A DNA stretch of 48,368 nt from Candidatus Nomurabacteria bacterium (GTDB taxonomy: Bacteria; Patescibacteriota; Minisyncoccia; Phycocordibacterales; UBA2100). Position 1 is the first letter of the stretch, and each line of letters starts with the position of its first letter. The notes under the pieces were generated by a model. That model was given only the letters and a program-made list of their open reading frames with translations, did no database searches and was not told where the DNA came from. This document shows positions 2,094-48,368 of the stretch, in pieces. The DNA is taken from the NCBI GenBank assembly GCA_943359395.1, contig CALRHH010000006.1, positions 1-48,368 on the forward strand, in the 5' to 3' direction. The translations under genes were made by a program, and so were the position numbers.

Positions 2094-3341
2094 TTATGAA
2101 AGCATCAGGACGCAAATGTTCTTCTTACCACGCTTGAGGAGTGCAACATTCTTATAAAAATTCTCTGCTGAAAGGGAATATTTCTCATCCGTAACCACTT
2201 CACCGTTCAGACTAACCGCTTTATCCTTCAAAAATAGTTTTGCTTCTCGATTAGAGCTTGCGAGTTTCGAACTCACAAGCGCGTCGAGGATAGACATACC
2301 TGCAATGGCTCCGTGTGTGGGAGCGGCACTTCTCAACATTGTGAGAGCCTCACCACTGAGCCCACTCAAACCCGCGTCGTCGAAGAGTACACTTGAGACC
2401 TTCTCTACCGTCTCCGCTGCATCGGCACCATGCGCGAGTGTGGTAACCTCACGCGCCAAAAGATGTTGAGCGTGCCGCTCCTTCGCGTCACGCCGATGCA
2501 TTTCCATGACAGCCTCGATTTCCATCCCAGAAATCAAGGTAAACAGCCTGAGGTAATCAGCAACACTCTGGTCACTTACTCCGAGCCAAAATTGGTAGAA
2601 GGCGTAGGGCGATGTTTTTTCCGAGTCGAGCCAGACGGCATTGCCTTCACTTTTGCCAAATTTTTTCCCGCTCGATTTGTCGACAACGATAGGTATCGTG
2701 AGGGCATAGGCCATCTTGCCTTCCTTGCGGCGAATAAGCTCTACGCCGGCGACGATATTACCCCACTGGTCGGAGCCTCCTATCTGCACGTCGCACCTAC
2801 GCTCCGTGTACAGATGCCAAAAATCGTACGCCTGTAGGAGAGGATAAGAGAATTCCGTAAACGAAATCCCCTCTTCGCTGTCCATGCGCGCTGCGATTGC
2901 GTCCTTTTTGATGAGCGAATTGACGGTGAAGTATTTTCCTGTGTCGCGTAGGAATGATATGAGCTCGAGCTTACCCAGCCAGTCGTAATTGTTCACGAGC
3001 TGTACTTCTATACCTCCAAGGATTTTTTCTGCTTGTTTTTTCAATTTTTCCGAGCGAACGGTAATTTCTTCAATACTCAAAAGAGGCCGCTCTCCATCCG
3101 GCTTCGGGTCTCCAATCATCCCTGTACCTCCGCCGATGAGAAGTATTATCTTATGCCCCGCGTCGGCGAAACGACGCAAGAGCATGTAAACCGCCAAGTT
3201 GCCCACGTGGATAGAATCTGCCGTTGGATCTACTCCAAGGTAGACGGTGCGCTTTGGACCATCGGTTATCTCACCAAGCTTCTCAGAGGAATACTGGTAT
3301 ATATAACCACGTTCTTTGAGGATTTCCGAGAGTTTTGCCAT
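2094..3341 (-). CDS. tyrS: Tyrosine--tRNA ligase
   Basis: YLGVDPTADSIHVGN (HIGH), QIGGSDQWGN, KFGKS and a C-terminal S4-like domain. Start taken at MAKLSE. Confidence 0.97.
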   Translation of the reverse strand: MAKLSEILKERGYIYQYSSEKLGEITDGPKRTVYLGVDPTADSIHVGNLAVYMLLRRFADAGHKIILLIGGGTGMIGDPKPDGERPLLSIEEITVRSEKLKKQAEKILGGIEVQLVNNYDWLGKLELISFLRDTGKYFTVNSLIKKDAIAARMDSEEGISFTEFSYPLLQAYDFWHLYTERRCDVQIGGSDQWGNIVAGVELIRRKEGKMAYALTIPIVVDKSSGKKFGKSEGNAVWLDSEKTSPYAFYQFWLGVSDQSVADYLRLFTLISGMEIEAVMEMHRRDAKERHAQHLLAREVTTLAHGADAAETVEKVSSVLFDDAGLSGLSGEALTMLRSAAPTHGAIAGMSILDALVSSKLASSNREAKLFLKDKAVSLNGEVVTDEKYSLSAENFYKNVALLKRGKKNICVLMLS

Positions 3342-3387
3342 GTGATTTTGCGAAATCATGCCGCGCAATCGTCCTTATGGCGCGGCC
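3340..3387 (-). repeat. Structured 5' element, copy 1 (28-bp identity with 41665-41692)
   Basis: ATGTGATTTTGCGAAATCATGCCGCGCA occurs at both sites, and the GCCGCGC/GCGCGGC stem is conserved. Confidence 0.85.
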
Positions 3388-4268: not shown

Positions 4269-5728
4269 GCTTCTGACTTCGGACGCAAAAGTGGAAACAA
4301 TTGAGCCTCGTGTGCGGGGCGGTTCTCGAGGAAAGAAAAAAAGCGTTCTGAGACGCCGAAACCGAACGAAGGCGGCATACCGAATTCCATAGCGCGGATG
4401 TACTCTTCATCGAGACGCTGCGCCTCGTCGTCTCCAGCATCCCGCATCATTTGTTGCTCTTCAAATCGTCCACGCTGGTCTTGTGGGTCATTTAGTTCGC
4501 TGAATGCCTTACCCATCTCTGAGCCGGCGAGGATGACCTGCAATCTCTCGACAATTTCAGGATTTGCAGAAGAGCGCTTTGCAAGCGGCTCGAGGTACAC
4601 AGGGACTCCAATAAGGAACGCGGGGCCTGATATGCTCTTGCGTATTGATTTCCACAAATGGTCGACCGCTCTCGACTTGTTCAATGCCTCCCCCACCTGA
4701 ATTTTTGCATCACGGACCGCTTGTATTGCATCCTCCTCTGTGCAAGTCAAAGGATTGATGCCAAATTTTTCCCCGATGACGGAGCAGAAATCGATGAGCG
4801 GCCACTCTTCCGCGAAATCAACCGTGTGACCGTTTATCTCAAACGTATATTTGCCATAGACCTCTTTCACAATATGGCGGTAGAGCTCTTTCAGGAATTC
4901 CATCCCTTTTTGCATGTCACTGTACGCCTCATAGGATTCGAGTTGCGTATAATCCTGCAAGTGTTCCCGCGACTGACCTTCATTACGAAAGATACGGCCT
5001 ATTTCAAAGACTTTCGGGAACCCTGCGACGAGCAGTTCCTTTTGCCATAATTCACCGCATGAAATACGGAGATACACATCCATATCGAGTGCGTTGTGAT
5101 GAGTCTTGAACGGTCGAGCGTCGGCGCCACCCGGAGAATTTTCAAGAATGGGAGTTTCTACTTCGATGAAACCTCGTGAGAGATAGAATTCCCGAGCTGC
5201 CTGCCAGAATTTTGTGCGTCGCTCGAACATGGCGCGTACTTCCGAGTTGAGCAAGATGTCGAGATATCGTTGACGCAAAATCAACTCCTCATCCTTTAGG
5301 CCGAAATGCTCCGTAGGCATAGGCAAGAGCGCTTTCGCGAGCATGCGCCACTTTTTTACTTTCAGGGAAGACTCACCCCTCTTGGTTTTAAACATCACCC
5401 CTGACGCTTCGACAAAGTCACCCGTATCCACCGAGTCGGCAAAAAGTCTAAACAATTTTTCATCCATTTCGGCCTCTTGCAGTACCATCTGCATACGGCC
5501 TGTCCCGTCGAATACATCCGCGAATACGATGCCGCCCTGACCTCTCAAAGACATAACACGTCCGCCAAGGTGGATTTTTTTTCCGCTTTTCTCTAAATCG
5601 TCGAACGCGGCGATTGCCTGTGCATTACTTGTGTCACGATGGGAATCTACAGGATACGGACTCATCCCCGCGGCCTTCAGGACACCAAGCTTCTTCAGCC
5701 GCTCGTCACGGATATCCTGCTCGCTCAT
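4265..5728 (-). CDS. lysS: Lysine--tRNA ligase (class II)
   Basis: OB-fold, RQRYLD, FIEVETP, GGADARPF, GRIFRNEG, FSELNDP and GMPP motifs. Confidence 0.97.
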   Translation of the reverse strand: MSEQDIRDERLKKLGVLKAAGMSPYPVDSHRDTSNAQAIAAFDDLEKSGKKIHLGGRVMSLRGQGGIVFADVFDGTGRMQMVLQEAEMDEKLFRLFADSVDTGDFVEASGVMFKTKRGESSLKVKKWRMLAKALLPMPTEHFGLKDEELILRQRYLDILLNSEVRAMFERRTKFWQAAREFYLSRGFIEVETPILENSPGGADARPFKTHHNALDMDVYLRISCGELWQKELLVAGFPKVFEIGRIFRNEGQSREHLQDYTQLESYEAYSDMQKGMEFLKELYRHIVKEVYGKYTFEINGHTVDFAEEWPLIDFCSVIGEKFGINPLTCTEEDAIQAVRDAKIQVGEALNKSRAVDHLWKSIRKSISGPAFLIGVPVYLEPLAKRSSANPEIVERLQVILAGSEMGKAFSELNDPQDQRGRFEEQQMMRDAGDDEAQRLDEEYIRAMEFGMPPSFGFGVSERFFSFLENRPAHEAQLFPLLRPKSEA

Positions 5729-35203: not shown

Positions 35204-36016
35204 CTATAGGAGGTGCACGACTCTGTCGGACGCGTGTCGCTCTGCTTCGAGGACAATTTTTTCCATTTCAGCCACCGCTTCTACAGGATACGCTCCGCGC
35301 GCGGTTTCTTCGGAGAGCATGACCGCATCGGAGCCACTATCAATAGCATACGCCACGTCGGTGACTTCCGCGCGCGTCGGCTCGGGGTTTGTCACCATCG
35401 AGAGGAGCATTTGTGTTGCCGTGATGACTGGCTTTCCTGCACGATTACATTTCTCTAAGAGCTCTTTTTCGATAAAGGGTATTTTTTCGAGAGGAACCTC
35501 TTCTCCCAAATCCCCTCTTCCTATCATAATAGCGTCTGCAGCCGCGATTATCCCGTCGGCATTCTCCACCGCCTCGCGACGCTCGATTTTTGCAATGACG
35601 CGTGCAGTGCCGTCGAGCTCTCGTATCGCTTTCCGCGCCTCTTCAACATCCTCTTTGTTCCCCACATACGAGACGGAAATATAGTTCACGCCTTTTTTAA
35701 GACCGAATTGAATATCGGCTTTATCTTTCTTCGTAAGCAATCCTTTTCCCGGATGATAGTGTTCTGCGTCAAAATGATGCCCTGTCGGAGTTTGTGCTCG
35801 CGGACCGGAGAGGTCGAGAATGATAGGAATACTTGTATTCGTCTCGGCCTCCACCGTGCGGAGCGCATCGATGTATCCGCCCTGCTCTTCGTGCGTACCC
35901 CACGAGAAATTCAGCCGCATCACATCCATGTGATGTTGTACCATTTTCCGCAGCATTTCCACGGTGCCACTCTTCGGGCCGATGGTTGCAACTATTTGTG
36001 CACGTGATGATTTCAT
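35204..36016 (-). CDS. pyk: Pyruvate kinase, minimal (A domain only)
   Basis: [33 protein letters not shown] and MLSEET motifs. Confidence 0.9.
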
Positions 36017-36027
36017 AGAGGAGATTA

Positions 36028-37302
36028 TTAAGGAGTAAGGAGGAAGTACCAATCCGATACATTGGCTTCCAAAGGCCCGGTCGTGATTTCATCACCCGTT
36101 TTCTGGAACACGGGAATGGTATCCATGCGCGCGCGGTACGGAGCGAGGTCAATACCCTGCTCCACGATACGCTCCACAGTGCCATTATCCACGATAGCCC
36201 CCGCCTCGTCGCTATTGTCGCGACCGTCGGATGCCGCTGCGACGAAAACCGCATGAGAACCAATGGTACGGAGCGCTTCGAGTGCGAGGAATTGGCAGCG
36301 CCCTCCCGTCCCGTGGTCTTCTGGTACCTGAAGTTGAATCTCTCCTCCCGCGAATACGACACTTTTCGGCGCAGTTTTTTCGGATATCTTTGCGAGTGCA
36401 GTTTCCGGGAATTCATACAGGGGGGTTTCGATGATGACGCTCGCATAACCGATTGATTCCGCAGCAGCGGCCATTTTTTTAAGCGCATCCTCATTTGAGA
36501 TAAGCACGATGTTGGTGACCTTCTCGAAGTACTTCTTGTCTTTCGGCGTTTCTTGGAGTGCAAACGCCTTCTCCATTCCGTATTTCTTAAGAATGGCGCG
36601 CGCGTCGTCCGTAGTCGATTGGTCGGGATACGTGGGGCCGGATGCAACCTCTTCAGGGTTACCGCCGACAATATCGGAAAAGACCATTCCTACGATTGTC
36701 GCGGGATGGAGCATCTCGGCGAGTCCGCCCCCTTTGAGTTCAGAAATATGTTTTCGTACCGTATTCAACTCACGGATAGGAGCACCAACACGCTCAAATT
36801 CTTCGAAAAGCCTGATGTTTTGTTCGCACTCCTCATCCGTGGAGCACAGGAGCGACGAGCCGCCACCCGCGACCACGACGAGCACGAGGTCATTCTCGCC
36901 CGCCTCTTCCGCGAGCCCCATGACAACCTTTGTCGCCCGTACGTTTTGGTCTGATGGCATCGGATGTGTCCCCACGAATGCGTCTATTGCCGAAGGGCAA
37001 GTCGTCAAAATCGCTCTGTCGATAACCACGGACTTTTTGAGTCGTGTGTTGAGAATCTTGTACAGCTCATACACAGCGGCGCAGGCACCCTTACCGAATC
37101 CGACGAGGTAGATATTCTCGAATCCGCTCGTATCAAATGTGCGGCCGCGGATAGTGATGGAGTTGTCGGTGACGCTCACATACTCCTGTATTACGCGCTC
37201 AGTCTGCACGGCATCGTATCCCGCTTCAAGAATCGTGAGCGCATCCCTGCGCTCATCACTGGTCGCGAGAGCGTCGAAATTCTTAATCCAATGACGCTCC
37301 AT
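36028..37302 (-). CDS. Glycerate 2-kinase (GckA/MOFRL family)
   Basis: [37 protein letters not shown] and TGP..NVSD motifs; start taken at MERHW. Confidence 0.9.
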
Positions 37303-41664: not shown

Positions 41665-41751
41665 ATGTGATTTTGCGAAATCATGCCGCGCACCCGATTC
41701 CGCAGAATCGTGTCGCGTACTGTCCTTTAAAACGCGACCAAAAGCGCGGCC
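41665..41751 (-). repeat. Structured 5' element, copy 2
   Basis: Same 28-bp core and closing stem as 3340-3387, with two extra internal hairpins. Confidence 0.85.
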
Positions 41752-42935: not shown

Positions 42936-43415
42936 TTATGCCGTTATGTCGCCCTTGGATGTTTGACCCGTCGCATGTCGCAACTTTCGTTCAAACCTCA
43001 CCGCCGCACTGGCGATTACGCCAAAGACAACAATCATCAAAAGACCCATAAAAACACCGCCCGCAATGTCATCGCCGGGCCGAACTATAAACAGGTAGGC
43101 TTCTGCCGCTACAATAAAGGCGACGAGGGTCATCGCACAGTATTTTATAGTTCGCAAAGCCCTCACCGACGCTTCCGAAAATAATTCATTCCGTCCGATG
43201 TAGCCCGACAGTTTGAATGCTTGATAGAGCGCCACGAAAAAGGCAATAGATGCAGTGTAGGCCCATGCCAAGAATGGATCGTTGAAATATATTTGGAAGA
43301 GTGTGGCGTGCGCATTCCTACCCTCGATATGAGGTTCCCAAAGCATGAGGGCAAGAGTGCCGACGCCTAGAGCCACAATGACCAGCTGAAAAAATATTGT
43401 TGAGATTCTTTTCAT
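42936..43415 (-). CDS. DUF2975 membrane protein
   Basis: ALYQAFKL..YI.RNELFS..SV.AL..IKYCA pattern and 4 TM helices. Confidence 0.85.
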   Translation of the reverse strand: MKRISTIFFQLVIVALGVGTLALMLWEPHIEGRNAHATLFQIYFNDPFLAWAYTASIAFFVALYQAFKLSGYIGRNELFSEASVRALRTIKYCAMTLVAFIVAAEAYLFIVRPGDDIAGGVFMGLLMIVVFGVIASAAVRFERKLRHATGQTSKGDITA

Positions 43416-43678
43416 AATTTGTTTTTACTGGGGGACTTGGAATCGCCTCTCGCTCTGCTGAGCTCGAAACCTTCAGCGTCTTTTCGACGCCTGCGGCCCG
43501 CGGTTCGCATTCAAGTCTACCCCGTTTTTCGCTTCGCTTCAAACTACATTATACGACCAAGCTCGAACCTATTTCGAGCGACTGAACTGATGTCGCGCGC
43601 TCCGCGCGCGTGGTGGCTCTAAACCTCTCCGTACGCTCCGATTGCGTGGTGAAGCGATACAATGCGCCTCGGACACGC

Positions 43679-43804
43679 TCGCGGACTCGCGTGTGCAAAA
43701 ACCAAAAAATTTCCTTGCATTTTTCTCGCGTCTCCTCCCCCCACCCCTCCACCGCGAAGCGGAATGAATGGAAAGGAAATTTTTGGTTTTGCTTCGCCGT
43801 TTCA
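43679..43804 (+). repeat. Long inverted repeat, left copy
   Basis: Reverse complement of 48254-48368 except for an 11-bp insertion (GAAGCGGAATG) and one substitution. Internally palindromic. Confidence 0.92.
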
Positions 43805-44009
43805 GTCTCCGAAAAGAGCAATCTTATTTTAACATTTTTGTTTGCTCTTTTCTCCACCCTCACGGCGACCGAGGCGCTTCCTCTCCGCGTTTGGTGGTGA
43901 CTTGAAAGTCTGTGGCTTCGTTCACTGGTTGTGGTAACTCCTTAAAGCGGATTGTGCTAGGCACAAACAAATCTGTATGTGCTTGCCCCACCCGCCCTGT
44001 GCGCGCACA

Positions 44010-44052
44010 AATCCCCGCCGTTTTTAGGATATATTATAAAACGGCGGGGATT
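44010..44052. terminator. 15-bp perfect inverted repeat after the cassette's last gene (possible terminator)
   Basis: AATCCCCGCCGTTTT-N13-AAAACGGCGGGGATT. Confidence 0.6.
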
Positions 44053-44062
44053 GCTCCCTTGA

Positions 44063-44500
44063 TTACATTTTTCTCGAATCATAAGCCCAATGTAGCAGAG
44101 CTTGTCTTTGCTTTGGTCGGCAAAAAATATCTCCCGCCCTGCAATTGTTTTTAATCTGCATGACATGTCTACGCATCGCCAGCCATCTTTTTATTTGTCT
44201 TTCGTCATCATCAGTTCTACGCCCTAAATAGTATCTGCAATACCACTCAAACCATCCACGCGGATCTTGCGGATGTATCCATCCTTTGGCTTGCCAAACA
44301 GAGAGCGACTGACTTGCGTTTACATTAAAATAATTTAGTTCCTTATGTCTCTTTCCGTCCGGAGATAATTTTGCACTTCTCCACCAACTTTTCGGAAACT
44401 CTTTGGGTTTATCAGAAAAATACAATCCGCCAAAAACTCCGAGCGCGAGCATTTCTTTTGGAGTGAGGTCTGGTTTAAAGCGTTGATCAAAATTCTGCAT
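44063..44500 (-). CDS. Hypothetical protein, Trp/Arg-rich
   Basis: LTPKEML.LGVFGG.Y, DPRGWFEWYCRYY.GRR and RQALLHWAYD; function unknown. Confidence 0.85.
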   Translation of the reverse strand: MQNFDQRFKPDLTPKEMLALGVFGGLYFSDKPKEFPKSWWRSAKLSPDGKRHKELNYFNVNASQSLSVWQAKGWIHPQDPRGWFEWYCRYYLGRRTDDDERQIKRWLAMRRHVMQIKNNCRAGDIFCRPKQRQALLHWAYDSRKM

Positions 44501-44506
44501 GCTACG

Positions 44507-45271
44507 TTATTTTCTTGGCAATGGGATGAACACGCTTGTTTTTCTTTTATACTCCGCAAACTCTGGATTCTCCTCCATTTTCTTTTCGAGCATAGGAATA
44601 CCAGAAACTTTCAAAATTAAAAATGTGATCATGATCGGCCCGATAATTCCAATCCAGCCATTCGAGACAGAGAGAGCAATGAGCCACAACCCCCACCACT
44701 GCGTGACCTCGCCGAAGTAGTTTGGGTGCCGAGTATATGCCCATAGTCCACCTTGAATCAATTTGCCTTTGTTAGCTGGGTTTTTAATAAATCGCGCCAG
44801 TTGAGCGTCTCCGACAGATTCAAAATAAAAACCAACGATCCACACCACAACACCAAACACATCGAGTATACCTAGCGCTGTCCCGGTGCTCTTGTTAATA
44901 AGCAACACGGGCAAAACGATTAGAAAAAGAAAAAGCCCCTGTAAAAGATATACTTGCACATACGAACGAGAATAGAACCACTTTCCCCATTCTTTACGCC
45001 ACGCAAGATACCGATAATCTTCCGCCTTGCCTTTATTGCGTGCATGAATATGCCAAGCCAAACGTAGACCCCAAATGCTCACCAATACTCCTACCAAGAG
45101 TCCTCGTGTACCGGAATCACCCGAAAGGAAAAATGAAGTCCAAGTCATGAGAACAAACCCCAGCCCCCACGCGACATCAGCGACATCATTTCTTTTTTTA
45201 ATCAAAGAAACCACGAACCATAGGCTCATGTATACAAACAAAACCAAAATGAGGGTTAGGTAATAATTCAT
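44507..45271 (-). CDS. DUF1295 (steroid 5-alpha-reductase-like) membrane protein
   Basis: DVAWG, WGLRL, EDYRY, GDAQL and TRHPNYFGE motifs. Confidence 0.92.
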   Translation of the reverse strand: MNYYLTLILVLFVYMSLWFVVSLIKKRNDVADVAWGLGFVLMTWTSFFLSGDSGTRGLLVGVLVSIWGLRLAWHIHARNKGKAEDYRYLAWRKEWGKWFYSRSYVQVYLLQGLFLFLIVLPVLLINKSTGTALGILDVFGVVVWIVGFYFESVGDAQLARFIKNPANKGKLIQGGLWAYTRHPNYFGEVTQWWGLWLIALSVSNGWIGIIGPIMITFLILKVSGIPMLEKKMEENPEFAEYKRKTSVFIPLPRK

Positions 45272-45675
45272 AGACCGATTTTACTTGCTATGAAATAAGT
45301 TACGACCGACACAGAAGATGCCAACACCGCACCCCACACCAAGTCCACGATTGTAACCAAAAGTGGCCAATCTTTAGCAACGGCCAAATTGGTTAGGTCA
45401 TATGTGGCATAACAAACCAGACCAAAGAGTGCCCCAAAGAGAAGAGCGTGCATCCACGAACCTTTTTCCACTGCTGGAGCGATGACAAATACAATAAGTC
45501 CAGCGATAAAAATCAGATAAAAGATAATCGCTGCTGTCCAATTTATGTCCGATTTCATAAGCGTGCCGATCTGCGCGCGATAAAAATCCTTGGCCACCAG
45601 CCCAAGCCAGATCATGTCGATGGCAAAGAATACTGGTAGTGCGATTGCAAATTGTTTTATGAACATAGTATTCAT
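45268..45675 (-). CDS. DUF2177 membrane protein
   Basis: IDMIWLG, YATYDLTNLA and VDLVWG motifs. Confidence 0.92.
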   Translation of the reverse strand: MNTMFIKQFAIALPVFFAIDMIWLGLVAKDFYRAQIGTLMKSDINWTAAIIFYLIFIAGLIVFVIAPAVEKGSWMHALLFGALFGLVCYATYDLTNLAVAKDWPLLVTIVDLVWGAVLASSVSVVTYFIASKIGL

Positions 45676-46437
45676 TTATTTTTTATAAAATATCCTTCCG
45701 ACAAAGAATAAAAACAAAACCAAACACACAATCACAGTCGCGATGACGATTGGATATTGTCCGTCAAAACCACTGGCAGAGACATGTTTAAACAGTATCC
45801 ATGAATATGCCCAGACGAGCACCATGCCATAGGCGATATTGTTGTCTTTGCGCATTCGCAAGATTCCAATCAGTGCTCCAACCAAGAGGATAATGCTCGT
45901 CCAGACAAAGTCGGCAATCCCGAATCCATTCCAACTGATACTCACGAGAAATACCGTGATGTTGGCGATTGACGCCACGGTGATCCAACCGAAGTAAATA
46001 CTAAATGGTGCCCAGACGAGAAGTTTTTCGAGCGATGTAAACTGCTCGGTGCGAAGAATGTCAGCAATCTTTATAAGGAGAATGAGCAGTGTCGCCATGA
46101 TGAGTACCGAAAGACCGATATAGTCATAGTGCCAAGCAAATATCCACGAGATGTTCGCGAGTGAAGTGGCGATAAAAAGTGGATTGATTTTCTGGAGGAG
46201 GTCTTCTGTTTTTTGATCCTTCTTTACAAATTGGTAGATCACATAAGCACCCAGCAAAAGATAGATCAAGCCCCAAATGGAGAATGCCGGGCCGGCTGGT
46301 GCAAAAATATTTGGATAGGCATCTGATATATCGCCCGTAGAGCGACCATTGATGGGCAAGCCGTTCGCCAAAAAATTTACCGCCACCATGGCGACATAAG
46401 TAACTGCGGTTAATATTTTAATATAAATATTTTTCAT
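45676..46437 (-). CDS. TspO-like (tryptophan-rich sensory) membrane protein
   Basis: FAPAGPAFSIWGLIY, NISWIFAWH and YFGWITVA motifs. Confidence 0.8.
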   Translation of the reverse strand: MKNIYIKILTAVTYVAMVAVNFLANGLPINGRSTGDISDAYPNIFAPAGPAFSIWGLIYLLLGAYVIYQFVKKDQKTEDLLQKINPLFIATSLANISWIFAWHYDYIGLSVLIMATLLILLIKIADILRTEQFTSLEKLLVWAPFSIYFGWITVASIANITVFLVSISWNGFGIADFVWTSIILLVGALIGILRMRKDNNIAYGMVLVWAYSWILFKHVSASGFDGQYPIVIATVIVCLVLFLFFVGRIFYKK

Positions 46438-46468
46438 AAAGTTTTTTTAAAAGTTATTGAATTGATAA

Positions 46469-47104
46469 TTATTTTAGCTCTACCAATACTTCATTGCGTG
46501 TCATCCATGGCGGAGTCCCCGGCGCATTGTATCCGGCGTAGGCAGTGCTCCCTTGTGCCACGACTCCGTCGCGAGCAAGAGCTGAAAGCAGTTTTTCTTG
46601 CATACTTTTGATTCGCACATCCGAGCGATACCAAGAGAATTGCATGACAGCGTATTTCTTGGTAGGAATCATTACGATTTTTACTCGCGAATCATTTGGT
46701 GTCGGTAATGTTTCAAGCGTATACGAGCGAGGCATACCAAAAGAGATGGTCTGCGAGTCGCCATCATTCGTTGCCACTACCGGCGCTGTCATAGCAATAC
46801 TTTCTGAAACCTTCTCTCCTCCTCCTTTTTGTGCAACTACGGGTGCAGTCATGGCAATGCTTTCTCTTTTAGTATTTCCGCCAAAGATATACCCCGCCAC
46901 AATACTAAAGCCACTGCTCATGGATTCTCCGTAAGAACCCTGTACTGTCGTTTGTGCCACGATATGCGCTGGATATTCCCGTATCTCGTAGTCGTTCATT
47001 TTCTTCACCACGGTATAGTCCGTTTGCTCAACTCGAGAACCGAAAAATCCCCAGACAGACCAGAGTGCGATTATTACAATGAAAGCGATGAGTATATTGA
47101 TCAT
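46469..47104 (-). CDS. SOUL heme-binding protein
   Basis: YEIREY, GYIFGGN, IAMTAPV (twice) and RNEV motifs. Confidence 0.92.
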   Translation of the reverse strand: MINILIAFIVIIALWSVWGFFGSRVEQTDYTVVKKMNDYEIREYPAHIVAQTTVQGSYGESMSSGFSIVAGYIFGGNTKRESIAMTAPVVAQKGGGEKVSESIAMTAPVVATNDGDSQTISFGMPRSYTLETLPTPNDSRVKIVMIPTKKYAVMQFSWYRSDVRIKSMQEKLLSALARDGVVAQGSTAYAGYNAPGTPPWMTRNEVLVELK

Positions 47105-47108
47105 AAAT

Positions 47109-47960
47109 TTATTTTTTTTCTAAACTCTTTCTTTCTACTTCATCAATTGTTTTACCTTCGATATTTTTCCACTCGTTCCAACCATTTGCTGATCTACCCA
47201 TTACAAAACCGGCGGCAGTAGAAAGACTAGAAAAAGTAATTTTTTGCTGTACTTCATAAAAGTTGCCTTTATCTGATACCGCTTGTTCTTGGATTTTTTC
47301 AGCCCGCAAATTATGCAGATACTCATGGATGCTTGGCACTTCTTCTTTTGCCACTTGTGAACCCTCAAGAACAATCATGCCTTCCGATGTATAAATTCCC
47401 TTAGCCTCCAACCCTTTTGCTTTTATAAAATATTTTTCATACGATTTGTCTGCAATAGACGCAATTTCATGGAAAGTATACCCGAGGGTCGATAGAACAA
47501 GTTTTATGTTTTGTTTAAATTCATCCATGTCGCTCTCGTCCTCCTCCGATAGCTTTGAGCCATCTGGAGAGTTTCCGTTGTGCATTTTGGCACGATTCGC
47601 TTTTTTACAATCATCAACAAATGTCGCTTCCAAAAATCTAACATGGGCTTTAGATAAATTTTCATCTTTAGCCAAGAAAACAATGCAGGTGTTCCAAAAA
47701 TCCTTAGATTGATGTTGCGAAATTCTTTTTTGGAAATTTTCAGCTTCTCCGATGTATACTTCTGGACTTATCGAAGTACCTCCATTCAAAAAATATAGAC
47801 ATTGCTTGCTTAATTCCTCACGCTTATTTACTACCTCAAGTTTATTTCGTGGAATAACAAATGCCAAACCAGACCAGTTACTGAGTTGGACTTTTTTTAC
47901 ACCCGTTGGATCTCCTTCGAGGAGGAATAATTTTATTGTTTTTGGGGCTATATTTTTCAT
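47109..47960 (-). CDS. GIY-YIG nuclease domain + DUF4357 protein
   Basis: NWSG, YIGEAE..RISQH, FW and FSSLSTAAGFVMGRSANGWNEWK motifs. Confidence 0.85.
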   Translation of the reverse strand: MKNIAPKTIKLFLLEGDPTGVKKVQLSNWSGLAFVIPRNKLEVVNKREELSKQCLYFLNGGTSISPEVYIGEAENFQKRISQHQSKDFWNTCIVFLAKDENLSKAHVRFLEATFVDDCKKANRAKMHNGNSPDGSKLSEEDESDMDEFKQNIKLVLSTLGYTFHEIASIADKSYEKYFIKAKGLEAKGIYTSEGMIVLEGSQVAKEEVPSIHEYLHNLRAEKIQEQAVSDKGNFYEVQQKITFSSLSTAAGFVMGRSANGWNEWKNIEGKTIDEVERKSLEKK

Positions 47961-47962
47961 AA

Positions 47963-48160
47963 TTATTTCTGTATCAAGTCATCAACCTTGATTTCGAGAG
48001 CCTTGGCTATTTTAGACAAAGTGTCGATTGTTGGGTTTTGATTGACTCCATTCTCAATCTTAACAATCGTATTGAGAGACAAATCAGCAAGTCGGGCGAC
48101 TTTTTCGAGGGAATAGCCCTTTTCGGCTCTGATCTTTTTTAAATTGCTTGCTATGCTCAT
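47963..48160 (-). CDS. XRE-family HTH regulator
   Basis: LKKIR..KGYSLEKVARLADLS..IENG..NPT.DTL.KIAKAL pattern. Confidence 0.93.
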   Translation of the reverse strand: MSIASNLKKIRAEKGYSLEKVARLADLSLNTIVKIENGVNQNPTIDTLSKIAKALEIKVDDLIQK

Positions 48161-48253
48161 ATGAAATCTTGTATAATTTAGTATATAGAATATAATATAA
48201 AGTATGGAATCTTTATATTTAAATCATAGCGAATTTATGAGCAAATGTAAATA

Positions 48254-48368
48254 TGAAACGGCGAAGCAAAACCAAAAATTCCCTTTCCATTGCGGTGGAG
48301 GGGTGGGGGGAGGAGACGCGAGAAAAATGCAAGGAAATTTTTTGGTTTTTGCACACGCGAGTCCGCGA
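48254..48368 (-). repeat. Long inverted repeat, right copy (runs to window end)
   Basis: 115 bp matching the reverse complement of 43679-43804. Confidence 0.92.

Follow-up and report, generated by a model that had tools for sequence, protein, structure and literature searches.

The end of the stretch of DNA analyzed here (48,368 nt, hereafter the window), from 43.56 to 48.37 kb, is probably the cargo half of a small integrative island that carries a large serine recombinase (LSR) gene and targets a tRNA gene; we put this at roughly 75%. Islands of this family occur widely among Patescibacteria (CPR). Complete relatives consist, in order, of a tRNA gene, a repeat of ~120 nt (D), the LSR gene and D inverted, followed by an inverted region termed psi, a core, a cargo operon led by an XRE-family gene, a structured noncoding block (NC), the core inverted and psi, which abuts host DNA. 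The junctions share only ~4 nt at the tRNA end, and thus the apparent inverted repeat is the island's own end (psi plus the ~135-nt core) present twice. The earlier note had raised the possibility of two island ends facing each other, and comparison with relatives shows this to be half right: one arm copy, where psi meets host DNA, is a true island end, whereas the other is an inverted internal attP-like junction beside the LSR gene. The window's own recombinase gene most likely lies just beyond the window end, and its LSR and tRNA genes would both fall within ~2 kb past the last base.

As the earlier note described, the inverted arms (43679-43804 and 48254-48368) are nearly identical, with one 11-nt gap and one mismatch in a pairwise alignment that continues through the final base of the window. 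The repeat search resolved them into 77 nt of 100% complementarity (43679-43755 and 48292-48368) and 38 nt of 97% complementarity (43767-43804 and 48254-48291). Searching the window with a 22-mer and a 24-mer taken from the repeat gave two matches apiece at ≤3 mismatches, against 0.00 expected from 100 shuffles. The long hairpin around a C-rich core was likewise recovered when the left copy was folded as single-stranded DNA (−29.1 kcal/mol versus −20.4 ± 3.0 for shuffles; z = −2.88), a value equaled by 1 of 200 shuffles, with stems at 43695-43716 and 43773-43792 flanking the C-rich loop; the RNA fold of the opposite strand of this copy was unexceptional (z = −0.71 versus shuffles). Bulged bases make the left-copy hairpin imperfect.

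Repeat search, folding and alignment together place the universal core of the left arm, which is the distal, NC-side arm, at 43664-43799 (plus strand), and comparison of loci shows its inner boundary to be sharp to the base, at ...GCTTCGCC. Outward of it lies an extension (43559-43663) that is homologous to the outer arm of relatives and includes the recombinase-lineage-specific psi region. Matches of relatives by blastn begin at 43559 (L021, L082, L050, L013 and L007), 43565 (L031) or 43593 (most others), and because homology reaches ~43559, the true repeat unit exceeds the 126 nt originally assigned to it. Leftward of 43559, no relative matches the window by blastn or alignment, so that the left-arm psi is unmatched there, a point that counts against the island reading; the left end of the island is somewhere in 43416-43558. 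The right, XRE-side arm (48254-48368, minus strand) repeats 43679-43804 in inverse orientation until the window stops, very probably together with the contig. The right copy is real despite being cut off, and the contig breaks within the recombinase-side arm. Contig ends cut off arms in other assemblies as well, in no fewer than 36 instances (30 by count, plus at least 6 from reading the hits). Full arms measure 200 to 270 nt, and the contig of the window probably stops in one because assemblers fail to get through this inverted repeat.

Between the arms lie seven open reading frames, all on the minus strand, with a GC content of 0.37 to 0.45 (1-kb windows, 44001-48000) versus ~0.47 to 0.58 elsewhere in the window, in agreement with the co-oriented, AT-richer genes noted earlier. 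The operon opens with an XRE-family helix-turn-helix regulator (47963-48160; Pfam HTH_3, E = 1e-15), at which a promoter-like site (TTTACA-17-TATGAT, minus strand, 48223-48251; a consensus match only) points from just inward of the right arm; the cargo operon is self-contained, with promoter-like site and regulator gene both inside the segment. There follow a GIY-YIG and DUF4357 protein (47109-47960; Pfam), which matches the candidate anti-phage defense family PDC-S14 (PADLOC, E = 1e-95), a SOUL heme-binding family protein (46469-47104; PF04832, E = 4e-46), a 253-aa membrane protein (45676-46437), a DUF2177 membrane protein (45268-45675; PF09945, E = 4e-47), a DUF1295 membrane protein (44507-45271; PF06966, E = 5e-77) and, as last gene, a 145-aa hypothetical protein (44063-44500). 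Pfam thus upholds the gene labels first proposed, except that the TspO-like label of the 253-aa protein, which has no Pfam match at E ≤ 0.01, comes from an Atlas feature search only (score of 0.95 to TspO/MBR-named clusters), a pointer rather than proof of family membership. The hypothetical protein has no Pfam or NCBIfam match and retrieves only hypothetical clusters in the Atlas search, and its gene adjoins NC in L038, L051 and L005 too. L038 also shares the DUF2177 gene and, at 80% DNA identity, the DUF1295 gene, and the XRE module (47953-48368) has identities of 93% with L006 and 91% with L047. No recombinase or transposase domain was found between the arms (Pfam and NCBIfam), and tblastn with the LSR of a relative as the query gave no match anywhere in the window, as the earlier note had it for the cassette.

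The block between the left arm and the last cargo gene, NC (43800-44062), is ~260 nt long and terminates in a GC-rich hairpin beside the cargo. Thirty-two distinct sequences preserve it, up to the start of the cargo, where conservation drops off abruptly. Its helices show compensatory changes in 7 of 50 pairs, a number reached by 2 of 500 shuffles, and insertions of 23 and ~85 nt argue against coding. The window had no matches at Rfam 15 gathering thresholds; for L018, L021 and L059 searched at E ≤ 1, none of the nine matches listed lay within an arm or NC, and the four at gathering level were all to the tRNA model.

The repeat is found well beyond this genome. Exact matches to the 24-mer occur in 117 stretches of public genomes, mostly Patescibacteria/CPR metagenome-assembled genomes of many classes, and the arm core is ~96% identical on average (89 loci). 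All 16 distinct within-locus pairs and the window are convergent ("+ then −"), and seven further convergent pairs were deduced from contig coordinates. Arms are 98.7% identical within pairs versus 95.9% between loci. The segment between them spans 1.8 to 7 kb and usually begins with an XRE gene and ends with NC, which lies beside one arm and not the other in 15 of the 16 pairs; an HTH_3 gene was detected by Pfam in 13 of them, and by eye only in a 14th (L016). Cargo differs in every one of the 16 pairs, which bears out the expectation that the same repeat would bracket different genes in other genomes, and cargo and XRE modules are common to islands with differing outer arm types. A randomly dispersed element is excluded: widespread as the repeat is, its pairs are all convergent and its arms are tied to cargo boundaries.

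In these relatives we mapped 26 LSR-like genes in 25 loci, and 25 of them sit 179 to 404 nt outside an arm. The neighboring recombinases are 354 to 461 aa long with Resolvase, Recombinase and Zn_ribbon_recom domains (Pfam). Fifteen of the 26 adjoin the non-NC (XRE-side) arm, which is the arm cut by the window end, with the start codon facing the arm; the window contains no LSR because it stops inside that arm. On its right side the window matches L006 at 93% identity over 430 nt, and in L006 the LSR starts 380 nt past the 24-mer and a tRNA-Gln gene comes next. The window showed no tRNA gene either, and the want of both genes within the window itself is a point against the island reading.

Among the 14 pairs judged with enough flank, 12 have an LSR gene 180 to 400 nt outside one arm. 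Mobilization in trans, as proposed in the earlier note, is not the reading that these loci favor; its broader idea of a nonautonomous mobile or invertible module fits insofar as the cargo lacks a recombinase and occurs in both orientations, but the module is probably served in cis. The two pairs without an adjacent LSR are L040, in which the D arms are reduced to a collapsed 47-nt hairpin, and L011/L012, with none within 1.75 kb; they count against the island reading. So do L017, where LSR-like genes flank the pair on both sides, and L019, where one lies inside the cassette.

In all eight complete-gene loci examined, the LSR gene is flanked by the second inverted repeat, D (98 to 134 nt, 95 to 100% identical). 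An intact tRNA gene (Ser, Ala or Gln) abuts the far D arm in 11 of the 15 loci with enough far flank, which speaks for the island reading; the four others count against it, as no tRNA was called there in L001, L043, L060 and L072, although L060 and L043 retain a tRNA-like end (...gtct|CCGC). Both psi and D vary by LSR lineage. The LSR proteins are only 28 to 100% identical to that of L018, beside a near-invariant core, and this decoupling is a further point against the island reading, as a plain "att arm" does not explain it.

Only ~4 nt, at the 3′ end of the tRNA, are common to the tRNA|D, psi|D and psi|host junctions. In 10 of the 11 tRNA-adjacent loci, what follows the tRNA recurs inverted beyond the LSR gene, and in 10 of 11 the identity between tRNA|D and psi|D starts exactly at CCGC, CCAC or CAGC, the tRNA 3′ end; the psi|host break falls at the same core in four of four loci examined. 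Judged from sequence, the three junctions are arranged as the attL, attP and attR of a site-specific integrase would be. In each of three LSR lineages, cassettes are found facing either way with respect to the LSR gene: tRNA-Ser (L018 versus L074), tRNA-Ala (L021 versus L031) and tRNA-Gln (L006 versus L070). Such opposite loci always carry different cargo, so flipping is not distinguished from replacement.

The cassette might instead be a nonautonomous transposon whose arms are terminal inverted repeats, with the transposase in trans and the LSR vicinity secondary. The ~96% invariant core beside LSRs that are 28 to 100% identical, the sharp inner boundary, the modules common to islands of differing outer arm types, the LSR-less pairs (L040 and L011/L012) and the recombinase-free window would all suit such an element. 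We nevertheless consider it improbable, since in L018, L021, L058 and L059, the four loci with both outer junctions read, what lies outside one arm differs from what lies outside the other, and hence there is no target-site duplication. Moreover, the outer arm ends are lineage specific and fall on att-type junctions at the 3′ end of a tRNA, and 12 of the 14 informative pairs directly adjoin an LSR. Neither the Y1 transposase that the earlier note had envisaged nor any other transposase was seen in the cassettes of relatives. Finally, the repeat has only two copies in the 48-kb window, and unlike dispersed copies, arms are tied to LSR/tRNA contexts in pairs that are all convergent.

We give equally little credence to a phase-variation switch, in which the neighboring serine recombinase would be an invertase that turns the operon or an adjacent gene on and off. 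Inverted repeats adjoining a serine recombinase gene, both cassette orientations in three LSR lineages and the slightly greater likeness of arms within pairs than between loci speak for it. However, the recombinase, with its Recombinase and zinc-ribbon domains, is an LSR of the integrase type and not a ~190-aa invertase, the trio of att-like junctions at tRNA genes is indicative of integration, and the same cassette was never seen flipped, the opposite orientations carrying different cargo. With the promoter-like site and the regulator both inside the segment, flipping would not uncouple them.

An assembly artifact or chimera at the contig end, to which a match reaching the last base, an exact match of 77 nt (a common assembler k-mer), a window length that is not round and a cassette GC unlike that of the host might point, is highly improbable, given that an indel and a mismatch separate the two arms (the assembler therefore did not make the right one by copying the left), that convergent pairs lie inside long contigs of many independent assemblies (among them the 148-kb contig of L018 and CP064994.1, a record titled complete genome, for L021) and that L006, 93% identical beside the right arm, runs on into an LSR gene and a tRNA gene.

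The literature searched held no description of such an element. Integrative islands with a serine recombinase at a tRNA or tmRNA gene include the ssrA islands of Dehalococcoides (PMC3146451). Going by the part of that source available, the CPR island resembles them in variable cargo, in composition unlike that of the host and, as read in the relatives of the window, in a serine recombinase gene beside a tRNA-type gene and in attL/attR-like junctions. It differs in having an additional attP-like junction, intact and inverted, in its interior and in a ~135-nt core and ~260-nt NC that are near invariant beside unrelated LSR lineages. This additional junction is why inverted repeats bracket the recombinase gene as well as the cargo. 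The SCC elements are small islands with Ccr large serine recombinases and variable cargo, inserted at the 3′ end of rlmH. Both kinds of island have variable cargo regions and use the 3′ terminus of a conserved gene as their specific insertion site, but the CPR island targets a tRNA gene, and to our knowledge no long internal inverted duplication has been described for SCC. NCBIfam CcrB and CcrA models match below their cutoffs, and at 95 bits versus a CcrB cutoff of 900, the L018 LSR is not a Ccr.

The Hin, Gin, Cin and Pin systems employ serine invertases of ~190 aa with a C-terminal helix-turn-helix and crossover sites of ~26 to 34 bp. The invertible-looking segment of 1.8 to 7 kb between inverted repeats, with a serine recombinase gene as its outer neighbor, recalls them, unlike the integrase-type recombinase, the 200- to 270-nt arms, the internal promoter-like site and regulator and the att triad at tRNA genes. 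In integrons, the tyrosine recombinase IntI acts beside cassettes whose attC hairpins are directly oriented and conserved by structure. Here too, a platform recombinase lies beside exchangeable cargo bounded by imperfect hairpins with bulged bases, but the arms are inverted and conserved in sequence, no tyrosine IntI was found by domain search of the window and relatives, and each platform holds one cassette with its own regulator and promoter-like site. The tycheposons of Prochlorococcus are small cargo-carrying integrative elements of streamlined genomes (bioRxiv 10.1101/2020.12.28.424599). As the accessible part of that report presents them, they are comparable as small integrative cargo elements in streamlined hosts without classical transfer systems. 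Tycheposons are not known to be bracketed by inverted repeats.

As an island, the element would be integrated and excised whole by its LSR at the tRNA gene. The excised circle would contain one long inverted repeat parting a recombinase segment from a cargo segment, in the manner of the yeast 2-micron plasmid, and recombination between the 200- to 270-nt arms could flip the cargo segment or swap cargo in either orientation. We know of no LSR that recombines attP with attR, a further point against the island reading. In the 2-micron plasmid, long inverted repeats with sites for FLP, a tyrosine recombinase, part two flippable unique segments. If excised as a circle, the CPR island would likewise have two inverted repeats with recombinase sites and two mutually flippable segments, but it has a serine recombinase and no known replication origin and is seen integrated at tRNA genes.

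A more tentative reading, which we regard as unlikely though worth stating, is that the near-invariant core hairpin and NC are the actual platform, a recombinase-independent cassette-exchange module of CPR, usable under unrelated LSRs. Because the arms are identical and inverted, any arm-bounded incoming cassette could take the place of the one already there, facing either way. In a bolder version, the double attP would turn the excised circle into a 2-micron-like flip-flop replicon. The inverted duplication would put a strand-specific signal, perhaps a priming, uptake or recombination site, on both strands of single-stranded incoming DNA, and the NC fold could act as functional RNA or as single-stranded DNA. 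If true, cassette exchange would be a new gene-trading route for organisms without conjugation.

In the window, the repeat search returned two adjoining inverted matches, 43679 to 43755 with 48292 to 48368 (77 nt, 100%) and 43767 to 43804 with 48254 to 48291 (38 nt, 97%). Pairwise alignment of the two repeat copies (arms) gave one 11-nt gap and one mismatch and reached the last base, which bears out an earlier note, made from the sequence alone, that had described near-identical inverted arms running to the window end. Sub-motifs of the repeat each occur twice in the window at ≤3 mismatches, with 0.00 expected. The long hairpin that the note had seen in the repeat and the AT-richer cassette between the arms both held: the left copy folded as DNA with z = −2.88, and the GC profile of the window gave 0.37 to 0.45 at 44 to 48 kb versus ~0.5 elsewhere. 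As for the seven co-oriented genes that it listed, all seven ORFs lie on the minus strand and five belong to the Pfam families given in the note, while the label “TspO-like” derives from the feature search alone. The GIY-YIG/DUF4357 protein matched the candidate defence family PDC-S14 (E = 1e-95). SOUL, the TspO-like protein, DUF2177, and DUF1295 are grouped together at 44507 to 47104; sets of this kind presumably occur in photo-oxidative or porphyrin stress regulons. The remaining window is ordinary chromosome, encoding UvrB, TyrRS, LysRS, enolase, G6PD, Obg, and TGT, among others. A tRNA scan of the window found none, and Rfam at gathering thresholds gave no match across the whole window. 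Within the chromosomal part, 3340 to 3367 and 41665 to 41692 form an exact, partly palindromic 28-nt direct repeat that may serve as a common operator; one copy lies at the TyrRS gene start and the other precedes the MscL gene by ~80 nt. The pyruvate kinase ORF (35204 to 36052; 282 aa), for which Pfam covers the end of the PK barrel model (positions 174 to 328 of 328), may represent a short, split, or mis-started gene.

Exact matches to a 24-mer from the 5′ stem of the repeat were found in 117 stretches of GTDB representative genomes (loci, given L numbers where they must be told apart). Counted from titles, ~86 are named as Patescibacteria/CPR lineages, including Saccharibacteria, Paceibacteria, Moran-, Uhr-, Kaiser-, Nomura-, Doudna-, Yanofsky-, Ames-, and Peregrinibacteria, among others; ~21 are titled merely “bacterium,” and 10 stand under other phyla’s names, several on contigs of just 2 to 6 kb. 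The 24-mer occurs 137 times in total, 2 times in the window and 135 in the loci, where 4 of the 135 are the same arms counted twice in overlapping loci (L001/L002 and L034/L089). Flanks of 2 kb were available for 80 of the 117 loci. Two-armed loci number 18 (16 distinct), and all of these pairs, like that of the window, are convergent (+ then −), with spacings of 1.7 to 4.3 kb; contig coordinates add seven further pairs, spaced up to 7.4 kb. A count of the repeat in other genomes, a check that the note had proposed, finds it widespread, with pairs of fixed orientation and different cargo between them. Phage and plasmid collections gave no match to window 43559 to 44062 (blastn, “distant” mode).

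Two complete relatives reveal what lies beyond the arms: L018, within a 148-kb contig, and L021, within a record titled complete genome. In both, arms of 212 to 215 nt surround a conserved non-coding block (NC), two or three cargo genes, and an XRE gene. The XRE-side arm is directly followed on its outer side by a second inverted repeat (120 to 133 nt, 100% identical), which encloses a gene with Resolvase, Recombinase, and Zn_ribbon_recom domains, a large serine recombinase (LSR), and a tRNA gene adjoins the far arm of this second repeat. The LSR was flanked by the second repeat in 8 of the 8 examined loci with a complete gene, and an intact tRNA adjoins it in 11 loci (Ser 7, Ala 2, Gln 2). 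In 10 of these 11, the stretch that follows the tRNA (D) recurs inverted across the LSR, and identity starts exactly at CCGC, CCAC, or CAGC at the tRNA 3′ end; the eleventh, L070, has the second repeat at 95% identity. Upstream of the D start lies the tRNA in one copy and the outer part of the cassette arm (psi) in the other, and where the other end of the cassette gives way to host DNA, psi breaks off at the same core in all four loci examined. The junctions tRNA|D, psi|D, and psi|host behave as attL, attP, and attR; this architecture, with its att-like triad at tRNA 3′ ends, is directly supported by the assembled loci. On the far side of the LSR in L060 and L043, ARAGORN called no tRNA and the junction retains a tRNA-Ser-like “...gtct|CCGC” 3′ end, perhaps the displaced tRNA fragment of an earlier integration. 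Another locus, L040, has a pair and no LSR, its two D arms abutting at 1247 to 1343 as a 47-nt hairpin beside the cassette, an arrangement suggesting that a deletion between the second inverted repeat removed the recombinase.

The arms themselves consist of two parts. Their outer 50 to 160 nt vary by LSR lineage, as does D, while the inner ~135 nt (window 43664 to 43799) form a universal core ending in a sharp inner boundary at ...GCTTCGCC. Core identity between 89 loci had a mean of 95.9% and a median of 96.8%; within 15 pairs it was 98.7%, and the lowest value, 90.3%, belongs to the window’s pair and stems from its indel. LSR proteins beside the arms are 28 to 100% identical to that of L018, and although the comparison of core and LSR identity is biased by the selection of loci through an exact 24-mer, the decoupling of the core from the LSRs is real. 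Lineage-specific outer arms and the universal core are likewise supported directly. Arms in the MAG JBAXFJ01 lie on four contigs (L060, L006/L076, L087, and L058), three of which adjoin LSRs 92%, 51%, and 40% identical to that of L018, so this one genome bin holds several islands with unrelated integrases and the same core. At ~43594 to 43612, in the outer left arm of the window, a small GC palindrome has the loop TCC versus GGA in 10 of the 11 aligned relatives with the segment, a difference that could reflect a flip of the hairpin segment.

A universal core with a sharp boundary, together with pairs that lack an LSR (L040 and L011/L012), is what might be expected of a transposon mobilised in trans. 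We consider this unlikely, given the context of the arms, their att-type ends, and the lack of target-site duplications outside the arms in the four loci examined. In its workings the element resembles serine-integrase islands located at tRNA-type genes. By profile, the nearest named LSRs are those of Ccr-type SCC elements, but the island LSR falls far below the Ccr cut-offs.

Between the arms, NC (window 43800 to 44062) shows conservation across 32 distinct sequences that drops away sharply where the block meets the cargo. Invariant stretches are separated by variable hairpins and by insertions of 23 and ~85 nt. Consensus folds of both strands gave the same hairpins, with similar helices and consensus energies of −40.3 versus −52.0 kcal/mol, the better being that of the cargo sense, and the fold may belong to either strand. 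In the cargo sense, 97.9% of cells pair, 7 of 50 pairs have changed on both sides (reached by 2 of 500 shuffles), and the covariation score is 0.126 versus 0.083 for shuffles (reached by 0 of 500); slid controls on the alignment gave 0 to 2 pairs changed on both sides. The structure was tested on the same 21 sequences from which it came and the compensatory changes trace to few shared variants, so the covariation is only moderate evidence that NC is a folded RNA or single-stranded DNA. Small ORFs over NC had no Pfam match, and the 23- and ~85-nt indels break every frame, which led us to reject a coding role. Rfam contains no family matching NC, either in the window at gathering thresholds or in three relatives at E ≤ 1, where only tRNAs and weak chance matches appeared, and we regard NC as a possible novel element of RNA or single-stranded DNA. 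It is not universal: L059 lacks it, and in the arms of L038, L109, L112, and L114 a different sequence replaces its arm-proximal part.

Cargo genes differ in every one of the 16 distinct pairs. A Pfam search of 69 ORFs in two batches (56 and 13, one of the 56 being swapped for an opposite-strand ORF) identified methyltransferases and a deaminase, an MvaI/BcnI nuclease with a LexA-S24-methylase fusion, EamA and LysE transporters, glyoxalases, a nucleotidyltransferase, TfoX_N, and GTP cyclohydrolase II, as well as many proteins without a family. An HTH_3 gene of 65 to 73 aa is present in 13 of the 16 pairs, mostly beside the arm without NC; that of L016 was recognised by eye only. Judged by its matches, the window cassette is itself a mosaic: its XRE end (47953 to 48368) is 93% identical to L006 and 91% to L047, and its far end (43949 to 45627, comprising a 145-aa gene, DUF1295, and DUF2177) is 80% identical to L038, from an Adlerbacteria MAG, up to the cut of that locus. 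The 145-aa gene (window 44063 to 44500; L038 1128 to 1565) adjoins NC in at least four islands (the window, L038, L051, and L005), and through this recurrence it may be sub-family backbone rather than cargo; the feature-search look-alikes of its protein are unnamed clusters, some of them viral. The partners of the window cassette (L006, L047, L038, L051, and L005) carry other outer arm types, and loci of different outer types have interior DNA in common elsewhere too.

The cassette can face either way relative to the recombinase. Of 26 LSR-like genes mapped in 25 loci, 15 are found beyond the non-NC (XRE-side) arm and begin on the side nearest to it. Four are outside the NC arm with the start facing it (L031, L069, L070, and L074) and four with the end facing it (L007, L017, L072, and L076; two are weak matches); two lie beside arms of undefined side, and one is inside the cassette (L019). 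Three lineages with a common tRNA type contain both orientations: L018 versus L074 (Ser), L021 versus L031 (Ala), and L006 versus L070 (Gln). These two orientations, like the variable mosaic cargo, are directly supported. Because the cargo differs within each opposite-orientation pair, flipping and replacement in reverse orientation are equally possible. L017 has LSR-like genes on either side of its pair (656 to 1822 and 4424 to 5368), and the LSR-like gene inside the L019 cassette (4 to 1197) adjoins NC; tandem or nested islands are one possible explanation. A Hin/Gin-like switch, in which the segment would be inverted by the neighbouring serine recombinase, is improbable, since the recombinase is of the wrong type and the promoter-like site is internal to the segment.

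In the window, NC adjoins the left arm. Host-like genes extend beyond this arm for 43 kb with no LSR, so it would be the distal end of the island; the island end falls between 43559, where homology to relatives ceases, and 43415, the start of the first host gene, a DUF2975 gene spanning 42936 to 43415. The XRE gene sits beside the right arm, which in the commonest arrangement would be the arm facing the LSR. In its closest relative, L006, the LSR starts 380 nt beyond the 24-mer and is followed by tRNA-Gln, a layout that predicts an LSR ~0.2 to 0.4 kb, and a tRNA or tRNA-like end ~2 kb, past the window. Assembly often breaks at this repeat: 30 arms are cut at the inner side by a contig end and at least 6 more at the outer side, like the window’s arm, whose 77-nt exact match to the window end would fit a k = 77 graph node where the arms stop differing. 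An assembly artefact as the source of the repeat is very improbable, as long contigs, and a record titled complete genome too, contain the same structure in their interior.

We propose that the LSR would integrate and excise the island at the tRNA. The excised circle would carry two inverted attP-like sites and one long inverted repeat dividing an LSR segment from a cargo segment, and the arms could mediate flipping or orientation-free replacement of the cargo, through general recombination or by LSR activity on an atypical site pair. The titles and opening lines of abstracts covered by the literature searches hold no description of the element. At that level, no precedent emerged for the inverted attP-like copy within the island, for the two inverted-repeat brackets that it creates, or for the pan-CPR core with its NC block.

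Gene exchange among CPR bacteria (Patescibacteria) is poorly understood; their genomes are tiny and conjugation is not known in them. The islands indicate a compact design, in which a tRNA-targeting serine integrase is combined with an exchangeable, self-regulated cargo cassette bounded by non-coding arms ~96% identical across CPR classes and unrelated integrase lineages, and their cargo includes defence candidates, restriction-modification genes, transporters, and stress genes. If confirmed, this design would provide a handle for locating accessory genes in CPR MAGs, explain a recurrent contig break in CPR assemblies, and offer a natural set of LSR/att pairs with readable attP, attL, and attR.
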